Assembly (NCBI GenBank): GCA_044226015.1
Contig: JBGAHS010000003.1
Span: 64,001-128,000, forward strand
From: Candidatus Obscuribacteraceae bacterium
Lineage (GTDB): Bacteria > Cyanobacteriota > Vampirovibrionia > Obscuribacterales > Obscuribacteraceae
DNA: 64,000 nt
Direction: 5' to 3'
Shown here: piece by piece, positions 13,812 through 26,861 of the stretch
Layout: every line of letters starts with the position of its first letter
Position numbering within the stretch: position 1 is the first letter of the stretch
Translations under genes and position numbers: made by a program
The notes under the pieces: generated by a model
Seen by the model: only the letters and a program-made list of their open reading frames with translations
Databases searched by the model: none
Told to the model about the DNA's origin: nothing

Positions 13812-14408
13812 ATGAACCACCAAGAGAAGACTTCATTCAGTAAATCCACCGGACTGAAACTGCTGCTGGCAATCTTATTGCTGAGCTCGCAGATTCTCTT
13901 GGAAGCTCAGTCAAAAGGAAAGCATGAGCCCACATGGGAAGAAATGACAATCAAAGGAAACGAATATCGAGAACGCAATAAATTCTTTGAAGCAAGACGA
14001 AATTATGAAGTCGCCTTAAAAATTGAGGACAAACTAGACATTCACGACCTGCGACGAGCGATCATTTTGCATGATATCGCCGAGTCTTATCGCGGAGAAA
14101 CCAACTTTTATCGCGCCAAAATGACTGAAGTAGAATCGCACGCCATCTATAAAGAAGAAATCAAAAATAAACAACTCGGCTACGAATACACCTCGAAAAA
14201 ACCAATCCAAATGCACTCAGGCTCTCTTCGCCCTGCCTGTTATCTTTGTCATGAAAACTGGAAAGTCGTTCCAATTTTATACGGGGAGAGCACCGGTTAT
14301 GATGGCGAAATCCCCGAAGAGTCTTCGTCTGACTTTACTCATAAACACGGTGGCAAAGAACCGGCTGACCAGCGTTGGTATTGCAGAGAATGCCGCCAAA
14401 GCTTCTGA
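13812..14408 (+). CDS. Exported protein with TPR-like helices and a C-terminal CxxC...CxxC zinc ribbon
   Basis: Signal-like LKLLLAILLLSSQILLEA; GNEYRERNKFFEARRNYEVALKI; CYLC...VVPILYG...WYCRECRQSF. Confidence 0.7.
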   Translation: MNHQEKTSFSKSTGLKLLLAILLLSSQILLEAQSKGKHEPTWEEMTIKGNEYRERNKFFEARRNYEVALKIEDKLDIHDLRRAIILHDIAESYRGETNFYRAKMTEVESHAIYKEEIKNKQLGYEYTSKKPIQMHSGSLRPACYLCHENWKVVPILYGESTGYDGEIPEESSSDFTHKHGGKEPADQRWYCRECRQSF

Positions 14409-15093: not shown

Positions 15094-17010
15094 ATGGGCG
15101 TAACGCAAGAAATCGATCACAGGGCCAGCAAGGACAGTGGTGCCGAAAAGCTCACTGGCAATTCCGATGCTAATGGAATTGCTCTAGACGCTGGAAAAAT
15201 TTGGATGACTCTGGCTGCCGCGCACGACCATGGTCAAAAATCGCCTCGAATACCTGGCTTACCCGATCTTGATGTTCACAGCAAGGCCGAATCAAATCCC
15301 GACAACAAGGGTCACCACACCGTCGCAGAGGAGATGCTGGACGACCTGAACACTCTTATGCAAACCAATGGCAAGGTTGATGTTCTGAATCAGCAAGCAG
15401 CCAAATCGCTCGACGGAACTCACAAAAACGGAGACCTACCAGTAATACAAACCGATAAGTTGCCGCCCGGCAAAATCGGAATCATCATGACTAAAAACCC
15501 TGATGGTCACACGTACTACACACCATTCATTTCTGCTGGCGGCGACGCACAAGCACGACCAGACTCATCAATAAAAATCAACGACTCAGCTGCACGAGAG
15601 CTAAAAATTGATGAGGCACTGAAGAAAGGTCAAAATCCCAAGCTTGATATTTTTGCTTTCAATTTAGAAGATGACGAAAGGCACGGCATTATCATGCCGC
15701 GCACGAAGGACGACTTGCATGAGTTAGTGCTGGAGAAGCTCCATAATCTTGCCGAGGATGAAAGAGAGAGAATTGCTCTTGAGCGAGTTAAGGAACAACA
15801 AACACGTCCTGAAGCACCAAAGCCAGATCCTGAATTTGGATATCGCAGAACCGAAAGAAGCCCAGAAGAACTGCGCAAAATATCCGAAGACTTCGCAAAA
15901 CAAGCACGGGCATTCATGGATGCAGCTGAACCAGCTGGCATTCAAGAGCGAATGAAAGCCGCAGAACAACAAGCACAAAAGGAAATCACACAGTATCAAG
16001 GCGAACTGAACAAAAAGGCAGCGGAGGAAACTCGCGCAGTTAGAGAAGCCTCACGCCTTGAAAAACAGGCTCAACAAATACTAAATCCTGAAAGCGACAA
16101 GGCCAAGAAGCTGGCGCCACGGGTTTCAGCAGCTCAGGAAAAAGCTGAGGCTGCCACCACTGCCAAACAACTCGCGGATTACAATTTATCGTATGCACAG
16201 CAGGAATTGAGAATTTCCAAAGACGAAGCTCTATTCACCAGACACATGCAAGCCAAGGCAAGTGCAGCGGCGATCATGTCATTGAACCCCGATATGGAAG
16301 GGGCGCTCAAAGGTCACAGATTCGTGTTGAACGCCGGCCACTATCCAGAAGATCCGAAATTTCCGGGATTCGAATATGACGGCACAGCAGAATGGAAGCT
16401 CAACCACGAATCAGAAGATGTGGCCGGCGCTATGGTCAAAATGGCCGGTGGAGCAGTTAAGTTAGTCAACCAAGCAGATCTCAAAGACCGCACCATGACT
16501 GGACTTGCCAATGCAATCAAAGCTGCGAAGCCAGAGGTAGCAGTGGGAATTCACCACGATGATGGCGAAAATAGAGAAGCCGACATCATGAAAGGCACAC
16601 TCACACTTGAGTGCGGTAAAACTACAGGAGCATGGAGCACAGACTTTGCCAACGCAGCGCACATGGCAAAACTGAACTATGCAGGTCTGCCGGAAAAGGT
16701 CAACAAGAACGGCGTTCCTGTTGGAATTCGTGAGCAATGCGGCAGAGGCGTACAAGGCAGAAATGTTGGCGCTCCATTCATTCTCGATGAACAGCTTTCA
16801 ACACAGAAGGACATGTGGAAGCTGGCTCGCGATCCGAAAGCAAATGCACAAATTCAATTTGCAAGAGTGGTGGCATTCTACGAATACGTAAACAAAATGC
16901 CCAGATACAAAACGACTCCTGACACTGCACAAGAATACAAAGACAAGATCTGGAGCAAAACCACAGTAGACGATGTCTTCAAGCGTCACCCCAAAGTTGG
17001 TGACTGGTAA
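15094..17010 (+). CDS. Coiled-coil protein with a C-terminal N-acetylmuramoyl-L-alanine amidase (Amidase_3-like) domain
   Basis: FVLNAGH, AEWKLN, VAVGIHHD, PFILDE give the H/E/H/E pattern; no signal peptide. Confidence 0.7.
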   Translation: MGVTQEIDHRASKDSGAEKLTGNSDANGIALDAGKIWMTLAAAHDHGQKSPRIPGLPDLDVHSKAESNPDNKGHHTVAEEMLDDLNTLMQTNGKVDVLNQQAAKSLDGTHKNGDLPVIQTDKLPPGKIGIIMTKNPDGHTYYTPFISAGGDAQARPDSSIKINDSAARELKIDEALKKGQNPKLDIFAFNLEDDERHGIIMPRTKDDLHELVLEKLHNLAEDERERIALERVKEQQTRPEAPKPDPEFGYRRTERSPEELRKISEDFAKQARAFMDAAEPAGIQERMKAAEQQAQKEITQYQGELNKKAAEETRAVREASRLEKQAQQILNPESDKAKKLAPRVSAAQEKAEAATTAKQLADYNLSYAQQELRISKDEALFTRHMQAKASAAAIMSLNPDMEGALKGHRFVLNAGHYPEDPKFPGFEYDGTAEWKLNHESEDVAGAMVKMAGGAVKLVNQADLKDRTMTGLANAIKAAKPEVAVGIHHDDGENREADIMKGTLTLECGKTTGAWSTDFANAAHMAKLNYAGLPEKVNKNGVPVGIREQCGRGVQGRNVGAPFILDEQLSTQKDMWKLARDPKANAQIQFARVVAFYEYVNKMPRYKTTPDTAQEYKDKIWSKTTVDDVFKRHPKVGDW

Positions 17011-17088: not shown

Positions 17089-19722
17089 TTGGCGTGCTCA
17101 CGACCCGCAATTCTGGCGAGAACAATGGAATACATTCGCGCGCCTGAACCGTTGGTTCAGTTGATTATGCTGTCAATTTTCATGTTTCTGTCCGGCTACC
17201 AATTCGGTAAGCGGGCGCTACCGACAGGCAATTCAAACCACACAATAGCACAACAGACTCCGAAACAAAGACGACCACCACGCAAACATCTTAACAGCTG
17301 GCTCTTACCAAACATCAAGCTCCTCAGAGTTGAACCGAGTCCAGCACAGTCCAAACATGAGAACATTGACCAACGGCGGGAAAGATACATAGGCGAATTC
17401 CAACAGATTGAAAATGAGCGCCGACGAATTGCAAAGGAACTGCACGACGAAATACTTCCCCAACTATCAAGGTTAAAACGAAAACTTGAGAAAGCGGAAG
17501 CAAGCGAAACGCAGCAACTAAGCATTTCAACCCTGCACATATGCATAGACGCTTTCAGAGATCTTCTCGGCGAATTACATCCGGTAGATCTGGAAGAGTT
17601 TGGATTGGTCTCAGCCATCAGCAACATTTGCAGCCGACATGCTCGCCTCACAGGACTTCTAATCAACTGCATCGAACGCATTGAAGACTTCAATCTGTCA
17701 GATCAACAGGCGCTTTATCTGTACAGAGCATTTCAGATAGTAATGCAACTCTTCTCTTCATCTGGCAACGACATGCTTTTAGTCACTTGTGAGCGCACAG
17801 GCTCCTCGCAAAACCAAAACCAGATAACGCTTAGATCCATAGACCGCAGAGTTGAAAGCGCAGACTGGCTCGGCGAAGGTATGCCAGGCTTCCTAGAATT
17901 CGAAATGCTGTGTGAAATAGCAGGAGCAAAAGTAGAGTTTAACCAAAAACGCAAAGACGGCTACCCCATCGACATTGTTTTAACATTCAGTGCTGCCAAT
18001 GAAAGCTCCGGCAAAGGGCTTGGAAAAACAACAGCTCACGAAGCTCTTCCGGATCTCATAGCGCTAACAGACTCCAGAGCTCTTAGAGAATCCGCAGCCC
18101 TAACAGACGACTCCGTAGCTCTAACAGATCACGCAACCCAAACAGACGACTCCGTAGCTCTCACAGAGTCCGCAGCCCTAACGGATCCCATAGCTCTTCC
18201 AGACTCCGCAGCTCTTACAGAGTCCGCAGCCCTAACGGATCCCATAGCTCTTCCAGACTCCGCAGCTCTTACAGAGTCCGCAGCCCTAGCGGATCCCGCA
18301 GCCCTAACGGATCCCGTAGCTCTTCCAGACTCCGCAGCTCTTACAGAGTCCGCAGCTCTTACAGAGTCCGCAGCCCTAGCGGATCCCGCAGCCCTAACAG
18401 ACGACTCCGTAGCTCTAACAGACGACTCCGTAGCTCTAACAGATCCCGCAACCCTAACAGACGACTCCGTAGCTCTAACAGATCCCGCAACCCTAACAGA
18501 CGACTCCGTAGCTCTCACAGAGTCCGCAGCCCTAACAGACTCCAGAGCTCCTAGAGAATCCGCAGCCCTAACGGATCCCGTAGCTCTTCCAGACTCCGCA
18601 GCCCTAACAGACTCCACCGCTCTTAGAGAATCCGCAGCTCTTACAGAGTCCGCAGCCCTAGCGGATCCCATAGCCCTAACGGATCCCGTAGCTCTTCCAG
18701 ACTCCACAGCTCTTACAGAGTCCGCAGCCCTAGCGGATCACGTAACTCTTCCAGACTCCACAGCTCTTACAGAGTCCGCAGCCCTAGCGGATCACGTAGC
18801 TCTTCCAGAGTCCAAAACTATTTGGTTGAACTGCAAAAAGGGATACACACAAGTAACACGCTACGCAAAAGTAATCGGCTCTCCTCAAGAAACAAAAGCC
18901 ACAGAAGCTGCACGAATTGCGAATAGCGGTTCCACCACATCAAACGGATCAGCACAAGCAAACGGATCAGCACAAGCAAACGGATCAGCACAAGCAAACG
19001 GATCAACACGACCGCAGGCAACCGAGTCAACAGGTATAAACGCATCAAGCAAAAAAACAAGAACAAGCGGATTAACCGAACCTGCAGAACTCTCCTTGGA
19101 AGAAGAGCGAAATAGAATAACAAGGCTGATCAAGATCATGACCCTCCCGCAAATCGAAAGACTGTCACTCTGCGCCAGACAAAGTGAATCCGCTAAAGAC
19201 AATTCAATCAGCAGTTTTGTACAATCGATCCACTCCAGACTAGAAAATATTATCGCAAACCACCACCCGGCAGCTTTGTTCGACAAGACCATATCCTCGG
19301 CTATAAAAACACTGTTAGTGAATTTTCACCAGGCAACATGCACCTCATTCATAATGATTACGAGCCCAGCATTCCACGGCTTACAAGTCGACGTAGCTAC
19401 AACACTCGCTATCTATCGCATCACACAAGAAGCACTAAACAACATCGAAAAGCACTCTGATGCAAACTGTGTCCGCGTAACTGCCGTCGAACACGACGAG
19501 ATAATTGAATTCAATATTGAAGACGATGGTCGTGGCATCAGTCTCAAACCAGATCAAGAACACCGCGGACTGCGCATCATGAAGGAACGAGCAAGCGACA
19601 TAGGTGCAGAATTCAAAATTAGCACAGCATATAGTTTTGCACAGGGAACCCTGATTTCAATTTCGCTACCAAAGACGAAACTGCAGTCGAAGCTTAGGGA
19701 GAACCCCAAATCGTTCTTGTAG
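17089..19722 (+). CDS. NarX/HisKA_3-type histidine kinase with two tandem, complementarily degenerate kinase modules joined by a repeat linker
   Basis: One N-terminal TM; ERRRIAKELHDEILPQL (His codon 17443); C-terminal YRITQEALNNIEKHS, IEDDGRGI, GLRIMKERA; likely start ATG 17125. Confidence 0.85.
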   Translation: MACSRPAILARTMEYIRAPEPLVQLIMLSIFMFLSGYQFGKRALPTGNSNHTIAQQTPKQRRPPRKHLNSWLLPNIKLLRVEPSPAQSKHENIDQRRERYIGEFQQIENERRRIAKELHDEILPQLSRLKRKLEKAEASETQQLSISTLHICIDAFRDLLGELHPVDLEEFGLVSAISNICSRHARLTGLLINCIERIEDFNLSDQQALYLYRAFQIVMQLFSSSGNDMLLVTCERTGSSQNQNQITLRSIDRRVESADWLGEGMPGFLEFEMLCEIAGAKVEFNQKRKDGYPIDIVLTFSAANESSGKGLGKTTAHEALPDLIALTDSRALRESAALTDDSVALTDHATQTDDSVALTESAALTDPIALPDSAALTESAALTDPIALPDSAALTESAALADPAALTDPVALPDSAALTESAALTESAALADPAALTDDSVALTDDSVALTDPATLTDDSVALTDPATLTDDSVALTESAALTDSRAPRESAALTDPVALPDSAALTDSTALRESAALTESAALADPIALTDPVALPDSTALTESAALADHVTLPDSTALTESAALADHVALPESKTIWLNCKKGYTQVTRYAKVIGSPQETKATEAARIANSGSTTSNGSAQANGSAQANGSAQANGSTRPQATESTGINASSKKTRTSGLTEPAELSLEEERNRITRLIKIMTLPQIERLSLCARQSESAKDNSISSFVQSIHSRLENIIANHHPAALFDKTISSAIKTLLVNFHQATCTSFIMITSPAFHGLQVDVATTLAIYRITQEALNNIEKHSDANCVRVTAVEHDEIIEFNIEDDGRGISLKPDQEHRGLRIMKERASDIGAEFKISTAYSFAQGTLISISLPKTKLQSKLRENPKSFL
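18060..18810. repeat. In-frame 18/21-bp degenerate tandem repeat, ~40 units (ALTESA/ALTDPV/ALPDSA/ALTDDSV) inside the kinase
   Basis: gctcttacagagtccgca / gccctaacggatcccgta variants repeated. Confidence 0.95.
18943..19005. repeat. In-frame 18-bp repeat, 3.5 copies (NGSAQA)
   Basis: aacggatcagcacaagca at 18943, 18961, 18979, partial at 18997. Confidence 0.9.
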
Positions 19723-19813: not shown

Positions 19814-20392
19814 ATGGCGCTGCTAAATATTCACACGAGAGAAATCGCTTGCAAGATTGTCTACTATGGCACCGGACTCGGTGGCAAAACAACCAACCTC
19901 AAATACATTTACAGTCAATTATCTCCTGTTACACGAACTGAAATGATAAGCCTCGCTACAGAAACTGAACGAACCCTATTCTTTGATTACATGGGGCTCG
20001 ACCTGGGTCAAGTTCAGGGATTCAAAACCAAATTTTCTCTTTATACTGTGCCGGGTCAGGTTGAGTATAACTCAAGTAGAAAACTACTCTTGAATGGCGT
20101 TGATGGAATTATATTTGTTGCAGACTCAGAACGAATACGCCAAAGAGAAAACATCGATTCTATCAAAAACATGAAAGAAAACATGCTCTCAGTCGGCATT
20201 ATGCCCGAATCAATTCCTATTGTCTTGCAATACAACAAGCGTGACCTTGCTCAAGTCATGAGCCTCGACGAACTGGAAAATGACCTGAATCCAAACAATG
20301 CCCCTAGTTTTGAAGCTGTAGCTTCCGATGGACTCGGCGTTTTCGCAACCCTACGACAAATAAGCAAATTAGTCTTGAACAGGTTACAATGA
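19814..20392 (+). CDS. mglA: MglA-family small Ras-like GTPase
   Basis: KIVYYGTGLGGKTTNL, TETERTLFFD, LYTVPGQV, GVDGIIFVADS, QYNKRDL, FEAVA. Confidence 0.92.
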   Translation: MALLNIHTREIACKIVYYGTGLGGKTTNLKYIYSQLSPVTRTEMISLATETERTLFFDYMGLDLGQVQGFKTKFSLYTVPGQVEYNSSRKLLLNGVDGIIFVADSERIRQRENIDSIKNMKENMLSVGIMPESIPIVLQYNKRDLAQVMSLDELENDLNPNNAPSFEAVASDGLGVFATLRQISKLVLNRLQ

Positions 20393-20447: not shown

Positions 20448-21143
20448 GTGGGAATAGTTATTGCCGACGACCAGGACAGAGAGCGTATCTGGCTCAAGAA
20501 CTTACTCAGCAAACACCTCTCGCATATGGCTCCAATTTACGAAGCACAAGATGGAAGAGAAGCTATCGAACTTGTGCTTCAACACAAACCTCCAGTCGTT
20601 TTTCTAGATATCGAGATGCCAGTATTGTCCGGTATAAAAAGTGCCGAACAAATACTTCAAGCCCTTCCTCTCACCGGAATCATCATTTTGTCGCACCACT
20701 CGGACGAAGTCTTCGTGCGCAAGCTATGGAAACTGGTGCCAGCAGATGGCGCATTTGGCTACGTTTTGAAAGATTCTTCCGACCAACAAGTCATCGATGC
20801 AGCCAAAGCAGTCCTCGGTGGAGACTGCTGGATACATCCTCGAATCCAAAGAATCATCAGGCGGGCAGAAAGTGGCGCCACGGGTCTAACTGACGCAGAG
20901 TTCGAAGTCCTCGTCTACATAGCACTGGGCTTCACCGATAAAGCAATCGCTAAACGCCTTTACATTACAGAAAAGGCTGTGCAGGCTCGGCTGAAATGCC
21001 TCTATACAAAGTTCGGAATCCCAATGAAGGGTGTTTCCGAAGAAGACGAATACAACCATCGCTGCAGAGCGCTAAACATCTCATTCCGACGCGGTCTGAT
21101 CAATCGCGCAGAACTCGCAGACTGGGAAGACCAGATTGCTTGA
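20448..21143 (+). CDS. NarL/LuxR-family response regulator
   Basis: IADD, FLDIEMP, GYVLKD receiver motifs; LTDAEFEVLVYIALGFTDKAIAKRLYITEKAV HTH; AAGGAG RBS before GTG. Confidence 0.93.
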   Translation: MGIVIADDQDRERIWLKNLLSKHLSHMAPIYEAQDGREAIELVLQHKPPVVFLDIEMPVLSGIKSAEQILQALPLTGIIILSHHSDEVFVRKLWKLVPADGAFGYVLKDSSDQQVIDAAKAVLGGDCWIHPRIQRIIRRAESGATGLTDAEFEVLVYIALGFTDKAIAKRLYITEKAVQARLKCLYTKFGIPMKGVSEEDEYNHRCRALNISFRRGLINRAELADWEDQIA

Positions 21144-23765: not shown

Positions 23766-23876
23766 TCGCCCTGCATAAAAAATGTGACAAACACACATTC
23801 AAGAAGAGTGTTTCTTTCAGCACAAGGCTCGCAATTGCAAACCACAGGCGAGCACACCTCAATGGAGAACTTCTAT

Positions 23877-26861
23877 ATGGCAGGCGGACTAGACAAGGCA
23901 GAGCAGAGACGCGGCACCGACCATGAGGCAAGCGCTCAGGAAGCAAGGACTACCCTACAAGCAGAAAGCATGGAGAGCCGCTCGGGCAGCCGAGTCGGAA
24001 GCGATCAGGAAGCTGTAGTGCCATTAGATAAATTTGACATCAAGGTAACCCCAGCAGCGGACGGCACCGGCGTTTTAGACCTGAAACACACCAGCGGAAA
24101 AAATGCGTCACTAGTGGAAAAAATGAGTGTCGCCGGACAGTTGCTACAGGGAGCCGAGTACGCCGACCTCAAAGCAATTGTCGTACCCTATCGCACCGAT
24201 GCACTCGTCGTAGATAGGTCAAGCAACCCAACAGAACAAATAAGTCAGTTCAAAGGAATTGAACAGCGTCGCGAACAGCTCAAACCCGAAAAACAAATAG
24301 GAAAAGCTGATCAAATGAACATTCGACTCGAAAATGGAGTCGCAGAAATTAGCTATACAGGAAGTAAACCGGAAGCCGCTCTGAGATTTGCATTACGCGA
24401 ACCAAACGCAGTTAGATTGAATGTAAACGGCGTTGATATGGGATTGGTAGAACCGCTGGAAAAACGACTTGGACATAAACCGTCCAAACAAGAATTAAAG
24501 GAAGCTCTAGCGCAGCTCACCTCCGCAAAGAATGAGAGACCCGAGAGTGCTCCCGCAGCAGAGAAAGCCGCAGCTCCAGACATCGCTCCCGCACCAGAGA
24601 AAGACGCAGCTCCAGACATCGCTGCAGCACCAGAGAAAGCTGCAGCACCAGACATCGCTCCCGCACCAGAGAAAGCTGTAGCTCCAGACATCGCTCCCGC
24701 ACCAGATAAAGCCGCAGCTCCAGACATCGCTCCCGCACCAGATAAAGCTGCAGCACCAGACATCGCTCCCGCACCCGATAAAGCTGCAGCACCAGAAAGT
24801 GCTCCGGCAAAAGACAAAGCCGAAGAGAAAGCTCCACGTGCAAAGAGAGCAGACAAGGCTTCTGCCGCAAAGGAATCCACAAGCGAAACAACAGCGGACG
24901 CTGAAAAACCACCAGCTAGAAAAGCTAGGGCAGCAGAAAAATCGAAGCAAGCGGAGAAACCTGGCACCGGTGAAGAAGCACCAACAGAAGAGACCACTGT
25001 AAGAAAACGAAGCAGGCAGGGTCGCGGAAAGTCAGCTGAATCCACTTCAGGAAATGACGAGACCGCAAAAGAATCCAAGGCAGCACGTCAACGAGCACCA
25101 GAGAATGCGATCGCATCCGGCAAGACCGCGCCACCTCTTGCAATTGATGGCGCCGAACCTAAAGCAAGTAGACGCCGAACAAGAGCAGCTGCGCCAGCAA
25201 CCGAAGCAGCACCGACACCTTCACCTGCAGCGGAATCACCAAGTTTAGCGCTTGCTGGAGCGCCAGAAGCACCGCTTCCTCCAGAAGCAAAAACAACAGA
25301 CACACCGCTTCCAACCAACACCGCAGCAAATGGACCAGAAAGCAAAGCCACCACCGGCGAAACTCCTGCCCAACTTTCAATTGATGGTGCCGACAGTGGC
25401 AAAGCCGTAACTGGAATCATTTTAGGAGCCGAACCAACGCCAAGCGAATTGTTGGAATACTATGAGAAACGAGGAATCGCCCCACCGGAAGTGAAACTTG
25501 TCACCATAGATAGGGCTAGTGCCCCCCCAGAGCCGCACGAGGTAGAACTTTACAGTGAACTTCTCCTCTGGAACGCACCAGATGACCACTTGAAAGAGTC
25601 CGAGAAACAGCCTGAGCAAAAGCCACTAGGTTCGGCAAGCGAGGCACTACCCTCAGTGCTAATAGAGGATCCTTCACACCCCAACGAGCATGACACAGAG
25701 TTAGCAGCGCAAAATCCTCTCCGCTCACAAGACTCTCCTGCACAAGCAGAACCAGCAACCGACAGCAAATCTCAAACGGAAGGAAGCCAGCTAGTTGAAA
25801 CAAATGAACGATCAAGCACAGGAGACAGCATGCCAAATCAGAATAGAGAAAAGAATGCAGCCATCACCGATCGACCAATGACCACTTTCGCTGTGCGAAA
25901 CGAAAAAGTAGTTTTCGCTGACGGCACGGAAGTTCCTGCACGAATAGTCAATATCGAAGGACATGATGGCGAACGACGCTCACACCTTTTCATTGAGGAG
26001 TTTCCCGAGCAGAAGCAAGCAGCGAGTGGCGCTGAGCAACCGGCAGCTGACGCCGTTCAAGCACAAGAGCAATCCGCCAAAGGAGACGCAAAAACACAAG
26101 AAAGCAATGTGGAAAAATCAAGTCCGCAAGCCGAATCATTCCGCCAGGCACTGGGTTATACTCCAGTACAAAATGCAGATGGAACTGTAACGATGAAATT
26201 CGGTGGTGAGTCTGAAATACGTCCACTGGATCGAAAAGGACTGGTTGAGCGTGCCGGAGCAATTGAGGCGGAACTTTGGAGACGCCCAGTTAATGCTGAG
26301 TTCGAAGGTGCGACACCGGGGCAAATGCACAAGTACACCTTCAACCCACCACAAGAGCAAGCCGGTCCAAGATTTACATTAGGTGGAGTTCCAGTTGAGA
26401 TAATCACTCCGCCATTAGCGAGACCAGGTGTTTCCGATGAAACAGCGGCGATTCAACAAAGAGAATTCGTAGAACAGGTGATGAATCATCGAACACAAGA
26501 AGGTACAAACGAACCGGGGCAAGAAGTGCCTGCAATTAAAGAGGTTCCAGAATCAGCACAGCCACGCGAACGAAAAGCAGTCGCACCAAGCATTGTTACT
26601 CTAATGCGTGGCACTCCAGTTGAGTACCTGGCTCCCGAGATACAGGGACCATACGCTGACTCTGCAATTGCTCGTCCGAAAAATGCAGCAGAAATCGAAA
26701 GCAATATTGCAATGTACAGTGTGCACGAAACAGCACCTAGAGGATACGCCGAGCTGAAAGCTGAAGGCAAGAGAGCAATCTCAGCTGCAAAGGATAGAAT
26801 ATCAGCGCTCATGCTAGCCGCGTTCACGGCGATCGCGAAAAGCACTCAATACTCGCCTTAA
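23877..26861 (+). CDS. Large, mostly disordered Ala/Pro/Glu-rich hypothetical protein
   Basis: ORF open from 23784; GGAG RBS precedes ATG 23877; no signal peptide. Confidence 0.75.
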   Translation: MAGGLDKAEQRRGTDHEASAQEARTTLQAESMESRSGSRVGSDQEAVVPLDKFDIKVTPAADGTGVLDLKHTSGKNASLVEKMSVAGQLLQGAEYADLKAIVVPYRTDALVVDRSSNPTEQISQFKGIEQRREQLKPEKQIGKADQMNIRLENGVAEISYTGSKPEAALRFALREPNAVRLNVNGVDMGLVEPLEKRLGHKPSKQELKEALAQLTSAKNERPESAPAAEKAAAPDIAPAPEKDAAPDIAAAPEKAAAPDIAPAPEKAVAPDIAPAPDKAAAPDIAPAPDKAAAPDIAPAPDKAAAPESAPAKDKAEEKAPRAKRADKASAAKESTSETTADAEKPPARKARAAEKSKQAEKPGTGEEAPTEETTVRKRSRQGRGKSAESTSGNDETAKESKAARQRAPENAIASGKTAPPLAIDGAEPKASRRRTRAAAPATEAAPTPSPAAESPSLALAGAPEAPLPPEAKTTDTPLPTNTAANGPESKATTGETPAQLSIDGADSGKAVTGIILGAEPTPSELLEYYEKRGIAPPEVKLVTIDRASAPPEPHEVELYSELLLWNAPDDHLKESEKQPEQKPLGSASEALPSVLIEDPSHPNEHDTELAAQNPLRSQDSPAQAEPATDSKSQTEGSQLVETNERSSTGDSMPNQNREKNAAITDRPMTTFAVRNEKVVFADGTEVPARIVNIEGHDGERRSHLFIEEFPEQKQAASGAEQPAADAVQAQEQSAKGDAKTQESNVEKSSPQAESFRQALGYTPVQNADGTVTMKFGGESEIRPLDRKGLVERAGAIEAELWRRPVNAEFEGATPGQMHKYTFNPPQEQAGPRFTLGGVPVEIITPPLARPGVSDETAAIQQREFVEQVMNHRTQEGTNEPGQEVPAIKEVPESAQPRERKAVAPSIVTLMRGTPVEYLAPEIQGPYADSAIARPKNAAEIESNIAMYSVHETAPRGYAELKAEGKRAISAAKDRISALMLAAFTAIAKSTQYSP
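24549..24815. repeat. In-frame 36-bp tandem repeat, ~7 copies (APAPEKAAAPDI)
   Basis: gctcccgcaccagataaagccgcagctccagacatc variants. Confidence 0.92.

Follow-up and report, generated by a model that had tools for sequence, protein, structure and literature searches.

Histidine kinases are symmetric homodimers in which activity brings asymmetry, only one of the two sites being at work at any moment, as passages of PMC5231405 describe for DesK; since the two subunits of an ordinary kinase do not differ, it is difficult to tell apart what each half does. FasB/FasC of group A Streptococcus is a genetic precedent for a pair in which one subunit supplies the phosphoacceptor histidine and the other the kinase activity: the parts of PMC12675982 covered report that FasC H246 is needed and the FasC kinase domain dispensable, and that two-hybrid assays gave heterodimers and no homodimers, with one regulator. 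Here we describe a gene at 17089..19722 on the + strand of a 64,000-nucleotide stretch of a Candidatus Obscuribacteraceae genome (GCA_044226015.1, contig JBGAHS010000003.1, positions 64,001 to 128,000; the window). Its 877-residue product, counted from a TTG codon, contains two HisKA_3-type cores, one (module 1) with only the phosphoacceptor His and the other (module 2) with only the ATP motifs, each core being a dimerization and histidine phosphotransfer (DHp) hairpin and then a domain for catalysis and ATP binding (CA).

Like FasB/FasC, the two-gene loci of this family described below (L032 and L033) encode a pair of kinase-like subunits, one complementing the other in His and ATP functions, together with a single regulator; in the window protein both halves are in one chain. 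FasB/FasC differs in belonging to another kinase class, in its ComE-like regulator, six transmembrane helices and lack of a GTPase, and in the candidate histidines of FasB; it comprises two genes, and the covered parts of PMC12675982 report no fusion. CheA3/CheA4 of Rhodobacter sphaeroides and Hik36/Hik43 of Synechocystis, as portrayed in sections of PMC3591291 and PMC7656254, also carry the His and ATP functions on separate, interdependent polypeptides. The split CheA kinases, however, are class II proteins with an HPt domain that lack whole domains, whereas in the present family each half retains its two domains, the losses being of complementary residues, and a single chain is the commonest form.

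ChpT/Spo0B-type phosphotransferases act alone as homodimers and receive their phosphate from a receiver Asp. Module 1 resembles them in joining a His hairpin to a HATPase fold without ATP motifs; it differs in that, in complete loci, it was found only fused or adjacent to a partner with a live CA domain. Single-chain kinase activity without a second protomer is found in EL346 (4r3a), a HisKA_2-type protein with one core and among the top fold matches here, and an engineered artificial EnvZ with a duplicated DHp reportedly has single-chain kinase activity. Rv0600c and Rv0601c of Mycobacterium tuberculosis are said to be complementary. Together with TcrA they form a set of two kinases and one regulator, according to part of PMC3544749. 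In the open literature, with subscription journals mostly and supplements wholly outside it, we found no description of this kinase family or of a natural reciprocal single-chain kinase.

Two HisKA_3 cores with reciprocal motif loss

The true start of the protein is one of six in-frame start codons inside the first 32 codons of open reading frame 17089-19722. Module 1 begins with DHp1 (residues ~101-167; 17389..17589, + strand, as are the other parts of the gene and its two downstream neighbours), a HisKA_3 hairpin with the phosphoacceptor His119 (codon 17443-17445) in the motif KELHDE. It continues into pseudo-CA1 (residues ~168-302; 17590..17994), which has a predicted HATPase fold and family-specific conserved motifs and is devoid of the N-box Glu/Asn, DxGxG and G2. 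A low-complexity linker of 364 residues (303-666; 17995..19086), rich in Ala, Thr, Leu, Ser and Asp, leads to module 2, in which DHp2 (residues ~667-730; 19087..19278) is a His-less hairpin with Lys682 (19132-19134) at the His position. CA2 (residues ~731-863; 19279..19677) is a HATPase_c domain with an intact N box (Glu781 and Asn785 in QEALNNIEKH, 780-789), G1 box (Asp812-x-Gly-x-Gly in IEDDGRG, 810-816) and G2 box (GLRIMKERA, 827-835). When the modules were aligned, Lys682 stood opposite His119, Ile217 and Leu221 (in YRAFQIVMQLF, 212-222) replaced Glu781 and Asn785, and module 1, with LRSIDRRV at 248-255, showed no DxGxG and no G2 motif.

A first-pass annotation made from the window alone had described module 1 as keeping its phosphoacceptor and losing its ATP boxes, and module 2 as having Lys at the His position with N, G1 and G2 boxes intact. 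The motifs it quoted lie where it placed them, and the alignment between modules agrees; it made no mention of the long linker or of the hydrophobic stretch near the N-terminus described below. Its further claim, that the protein holds two alignable HisKA_3 plus HATPase copies, held by alignment and by predicted fold, whereas the profile scan gave one of each and not two: Pfam matched a single HisKA_3 (PF07730; 110-167, E 6e-06, 27.2 bits against a cut-off of 24) and a single HATPase_c (PF02518; 773-863, E 1.6e-07, 32.2 bits against 26.4), ~600 residues apart, and the NCBIfam scores were all far under cut-off. In kind, the protein resembles HisKA_3 kinases of the NarX/DesK/UhpB type in its DHp and HATPase_c domains, its ERxRIAxELHD H-box and ExLNNxxKH N box, its NarL-type partner and its best fold matches, VraS and DesK; it differs in having two cores per chain (or in two genes), each incomplete.

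Relatives were gathered from related genomes, protein searches, species genomes and metagenomes. Among 75 fused relatives, non-redundant at 90% and drawn from 124, the H-box was present in module 1 of 75/75 and in module 2 of 0/75; DxGxG was present in CA1 of 0/75 and in CA2 of 75/75, with an N box in CA2 of 74/75. An H-box and DxGxG in the same module, the arrangement of the canonical symmetric HisKA_3 homodimer with His and live CA in one unit, were found in 0/75 of these proteins, in contrast to 22/22 ordinary HisKA_3 paralogs that kept both His and ATP motifs. In a second set of 47 non-redundant fused proteins, from which twelve rows cut by locus or contig ends had been dropped, the module-1 His, the CA2 N-box Glu and Asn, the G1 Asp and both Gly, and the G2 Gly and Arg were each present in 47/47. 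The reciprocal loss is thus shared across relatives of roughly 30-60% identity, whereas intact modules in orthologs would have spoken against the first-pass reading. The named ones are mostly Candidatus Obscuribacterales/Melainabacteria, and the remainder are unclassified or carry other bin names.

The residue at the module-2 His position is free to vary (N, D, E, S and others), so it is not an alternative phosphoacceptor. The dead CA1, by comparison, was conserved about as well as the live CA2 (mean top-residue frequency 0.60 vs 0.63 in the 75-protein set) and has near-fixed residues of its own, so it appears to be retained for some purpose. In HisKA_3 kinases the phosphatase Gln lies five residues past the His, in the motif HDxxxQ, according to passages of PMC5231405 and PMC6798134. 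All 75 module-1 copies, like some ordinary paralogs of the lineage, have Pro at His+5, and the mode of dephosphorylation may therefore be different.

Might the pattern be no more than a decaying tandem duplication or an assembly artefact without special function? In a class-wide search the gene was patchy, matching at E < 1e-60 in 24/72 other genomes of the window family, and the ten other families yielded 0/178 genomes with a match at 1e-30. The linker of the window copy is built on an 18-bp tandem array (18060-18813), with a second array at 18941-19009, and is 364 residues long in this copy alone; across the other 46 fused relatives its length ranges over 13-59 residues. Public Logan contigs covered the two modules and parts of the array, yet no listed contig piece crosses the array, which leaves the exact length of the linker unconfirmed. 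The same contigs held two length variants, a 501-base skip at one joint and an 18-base deletion, and both keep the reading frame. Among 32 strain differences listed for the window gene, 15 were synonymous and 4 non-synonymous in the modules, as against 1 and 11 in the linker. These mostly synonymous module differences (15/19), together with the motif counts in relatives, rule out recent decay or a frameshift artefact. Given also the conserved gene order and the recurrence of the pattern in 75 relatives, we regard decay or artefact of any kind as highly improbable; this explanation is largely refuted, only the exact linker length remaining. A further protein with a long repeat insert, of AAPDIAPAP(E/D)K-type units, is encoded at 23784-26861 of the window and suggests that repeats often expand in frame in this genome.

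Having HisKA_3 cores in tandem, judged from sequence, recurs in other lineages and is not unique: among cluster representatives, the unrelated proteins P0163, P0166, P0172, P0187 and P0208 have two HisKA_3 plus HATPase_c cores, each with His and G1, and mostly PAS/GAF domains. Five others (P0173, P0190, P0178, P0185 and P0199) combine one H-box with two DxGxG motifs, four of them with an AECARWARE(L/I)HD H-box, and may have gone part of the way to this asymmetry independently.

Two-gene forms and the predicted packing of the modules

At L032 (= L064) and L033 the two halves are separate, overlapping genes, A and B, followed by mglA and then by a regulator gene. The product of gene A starts with hydrophobic helices and a helical juxtamembrane region, after which come the His hairpin and the dead domain; that of gene B has an N-terminus laid out as in A, followed by the His-less hairpin and the live domain. 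Eight stand-alone A proteins and nine full-length B proteins were found in total, and three further A/B pairs were matched by the equal longest contig of their source, which only suggests adjacency. In complete loci A and B were always together. Their N-termini align with each other (25% over 119 positions, E 3e-04), and the helix preceding each hairpin can be read in many fused sequences as well. Pfam found no HAMP domain in the split forms; by their sequence pattern we read the juxtamembrane helices as HAMP-like.

The membrane-helix cut-off was passed by 7/8 A and 8/9 B proteins and by 2/72 fused ones (P0080 and P0093, in N-terminal helices). The window protein has a short hydrophobic stretch at residues 22-36 (17152..17196), a possible weak membrane anchor whose 15-residue Kyte-Doolittle mean is 2.15 and whose 19-residue mean, 1.57, lies below a cut-off of 1.8.

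In a quick all-module tree, module 1 and module 2 each formed one well-supported group and the split forms were scattered among the fused ones. Grouping the split forms as a single clade was rejected moderately (p-AU 0.025, LG+G4), in a tree in which three of the five split pairs were joined solely through equal longest contig of source. Because the root of the tree is unresolved, we infer the order from split to fused from domain content. The two-gene loci point to an obligate heterodimer that was fused afterwards. The ancestor would have been a tandem pair of membrane kinases, A with a His and a dead CA and B with no His and a live CA, working as an obligate heterodimer. The simplest history appears to be duplication of a membrane kinase, loss of complementary functions by the copies, fusion more than once and loss of the membrane parts.

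The AlphaFold2 model of window module 1 (predicted local distance difference test, pLDDT, 90.2; predicted template modelling score, pTM, 0.86) had the element order of a DHp-CA unit. It matched the ATP-binding domains of the histidine kinases VraS (4gt8; Z 13.6, root-mean-square deviation 3.0, 127 residues aligned) and DesK (3ehg; Z 12.0, deviation 2.9, 120 aligned), the latter also the top Foldseek match (E 7.7e-06). An HATPase fold in the C-terminal part of module 1, on which the first-pass reading depended, is thus predicted. The model also matched 4qpj (Z 10.2, deviation 5.5, 183 aligned) and 4fpp (Z 9.5, deviation 5.9, 181 aligned), both of which we take to be ChpT phosphotransferases. 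The relative P0006 (442 residues, with a 20-residue linker), folded as a single chain, reached pLDDT 85.7 and pTM 0.80 with element order alike in both modules. With two equal modules, a pTM of 0.80 suggests that their placement relative to each other is predicted with confidence, and P0006 is predicted to fold as one compact unit. Some of its structural alignments united DHp1 and CA2 as one protomer, as with 6dk8_E (model 18-420; 180 aligned, deviation 5.4, Z 13.9).

From these models and the two-gene forms we consider it likely that the two hairpins share one bundle, that CA2 phosphorylates His119 in trans geometry and that the phosphate passes to Asp54 of the regulator encoded downstream. 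Four helices, two each from DHp1 and DHp2, would make up this bundle, and CA2, as the only ATP domain, would reach the single His119 in the geometry of trans-autophosphorylation; the phosphate would then be handed from His119 to Asp54 of the adjoining NarL-type regulator. The intramolecular pseudo-dimer proposed initially gains support from the natural versions with one half per gene and from the compact P0006 model. The dead CA1 may have been retained for a structural or binding role, perhaps by docking against the first helix of DHp2 so as to leave one regulator site. Passages of PMC5231405 describe the phosphotransfer state of DesK as asymmetric, one CA being docked on helix 1 of the other protomer and one free, with one regulator bound. 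By analogy, such a state would become permanent if the dead CA1 were held in place over DHp2.

The modules might instead form two homodimeric bundles, a ChpT-like dimer of module 1 and a His-less, CheA P3-P4-like dimer of module 2, with CA2 phosphorylating His119 across bundles. Module 1 alone does fold confidently and match phosphotransferases, the 364-residue linker of the window copy would allow independent modules, and the split CheA3/CheA4 pair operates in this way, CheA4 phosphorylating CheA3, as part of PMC3591291 relates. However, the linker is only 13-29 residues long in 19/47 fused forms, the short-linker chain P0006 models as one rigid unit, and A and B have equivalent membrane and juxtamembrane parts, as expected of side-by-side subunits. 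We therefore hold two bundles to be unlikely.

Several points nevertheless weigh against the shared bundle and its proposed history. DHp1 is far more conserved than DHp2 (0.81 vs 0.54 for DHp helix 1), which also fits a DHp1 homodimer. A His occurs at the module-2 H-box position in 1/47 proteins, and an Asn at the CA1 N-box position in 1/47. The protein at L067:410-1945, apparently the sole such case among the 47, has His at the module-2 H-box position followed by Thr and not Asp. The four-helix bundle is a reading of pTM and aligned ranges; AlphaFold tends to copy the common DHp dimer, which the P0006 model may echo; and P0006 was folded as a whole chain, the window protein by module 1 only and not over all 877 residues. 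Kinase activity of the two-module protein is itself a proposal from sequence and model, and trans phosphorylation in HisKA_3 kinases is carried over from DesK as general background that the cited passages do not confirm. NarX and NarQ may be exceptions to the cis/trans rule, as noted in part of PMC8199190. The trees do not fix the direction from split to fused. Finally, module 2 of the window protein has the longest branch in the tree (1.83), and with its extreme linker the window copy may have a looser coupling between its modules than other members of the family, of which those with short linkers are better objects of study.

The adjoining MglA-type GTPase and response regulator

Downstream of the kinase gene lie an MglA-type small GTPase of 192 residues (19814..20392), an extra copy with the invariant Arg53 and Gln82, and a NarL/LuxR-type response regulator (20448..21143) that has a receiver with Asp54 and a GerE-type helix-turn-helix and is the likely cognate phosphoacceptor. 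We examined 47 loci, several of them duplicated between collections and the related ones not independent, of which 39 reach at least 500 bases beyond module 2. In all 39, mglA was the next gene, less than 280 bp from the module-2 match in 37 and 395 and 732 bp away in the other two. A NarL-type regulator followed mglA in 37 loci; the other two stop inside mglA. Each of the 34 full-length regulator copies had the acidic pair, Asp and Lys motifs. Ordinary kinase paralogs (L028-L030, L061) were directly beside related regulators, without mglA.

Module 1 could also be a relay fed by another kinase or receiver, with module 2 acting not on His119 but as a pseudokinase-like nucleotide switch or scaffold, perhaps via MglA. 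Six other HisKA_3-like kinases are encoded in the genome, and two regulator paralogs (58-61% identity) lie beside two of these. The catalytic residues of CA2 are all invariant (47/47), however, no hybrid kinase or extra receiver was found among the locus genes screened with window-derived references only, and A and B stay together wherever the locus is complete. We judge such an external relay quite unlikely, and phosphorylation of His119 by CA2 remains our preferred reading.

The neighbouring GTPase is Myxococcus-like (E 7.8e-66 to MglA structures), and the intrinsic R53 and Q82, the P-loop GGKT and NKRD were invariant in 25/25 neighbour GTPases. By sequence match and residues, it fits MglA Group 1. 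A second mglA in the window genome (G000:C1:246924-247499, locus L085) is 72% identical; there was no roadblock gene within 1.5 kb of it among reading frames of at least 100 residues, and upstream of it a DNA repeat translates into repeated peptide units. Of 103 further genomes in the family, 99 had MglA, some with as many as six matches. The roadblock matches of the window genome were all on contigs other than that of the kinase locus: roadblock/LC7 domains occur within open frames of 826 (G000:C7:2157-2417) and 905 residues (C11:564287-565669, two copies), and C11 also carries a stand-alone roadblock gene of 130 residues. No kinase Pfam family was found in the best 120 of 7758 longer MglA relatives, and so no MglA-kinase fusion among them. 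A complex prediction of a relative's fused kinase with its MglA, GTP and Mg, with no controls folded alongside, scored 0.18 against a mark of 0.32, and we count it neither way. Promoter and terminator scans were at chance level (4 vs 4.1 and 4 vs 5.5), and no RNA record containing the locus was listed. Upstream of the kinase gene, on the + strand, are genes for a 638-residue protein (15094-17010), which matches Amidase_3 weakly (E 0.0035), and for a 198-residue TPR-like protein (13812-14408); only 2/47 loci (L031 and L042) keep both in the upstream position.

Actinobacterial conservons likewise hold a histidine kinase and an MglA-family GTPase in one operon, and, in the parts of PMC13343842 and PMC4316618 covered, their sensor-less kinases take input from an accessory protein. 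These sources give the conservon order as kinase, MglB roadblock, CvnC and a Group 2 GTPase without Arg finger, and in the same parts no response regulator appears. Here the order is kinase, mglA and NarL regulator, with no roadblock between kinase and regulator, and the GTPase keeps Arg53; by these differences the system is not a conservon.

The first-pass annotation, seeing no obvious sensor domain, had suggested that input may come from a partner protein; on gene order alone, MglA is the best candidate for such a partner. In forms without membrane parts it would be the likeliest source or modulator of the signal, although we put a direct role at somewhat less than an even chance; the membrane-bound two-gene forms also carry mglA, so it may modulate or act downstream instead. 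A further reading, which we hold as tentative and on balance doubtful, is that Obscuribacterales have a G-protein-gated two-component system of three parts: a Ras-like GTPase would act directly on a naturally single-chain, pseudo-dimeric kinase with one His and one ATP site, switching it through its conserved dead ATPase domain. The GTPase would then replace the lost membrane sensor, with output to a transcription regulator, and the two-gene, membrane-anchored fused and soluble fused stages would all be extant.

Asymmetry fixed in sequence

Three things set this family apart: its loss of motifs is strictly reciprocal, its split and fused stages both survive, and its operon includes a GTPase and a regulator. 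The asymmetry that ordinary kinases adopt when active is here fixed in sequence, in most copies within one soluble chain of ~430 residues. Mutations can be placed in either half by itself, which opens three questions to direct test: whether phosphorylation runs in cis or in trans, what a docked ATP domain does, and whether half-site activity occurs. In the living forms, which run from a pair of membrane-protein genes to a soluble fusion, one sees how a kinase can come to be without its sensor, and the fixed link of kinase, MglA GTPase and response regulator suggests that G-protein signalling is here connected to two-component signalling in a way unlike that of the conservons.

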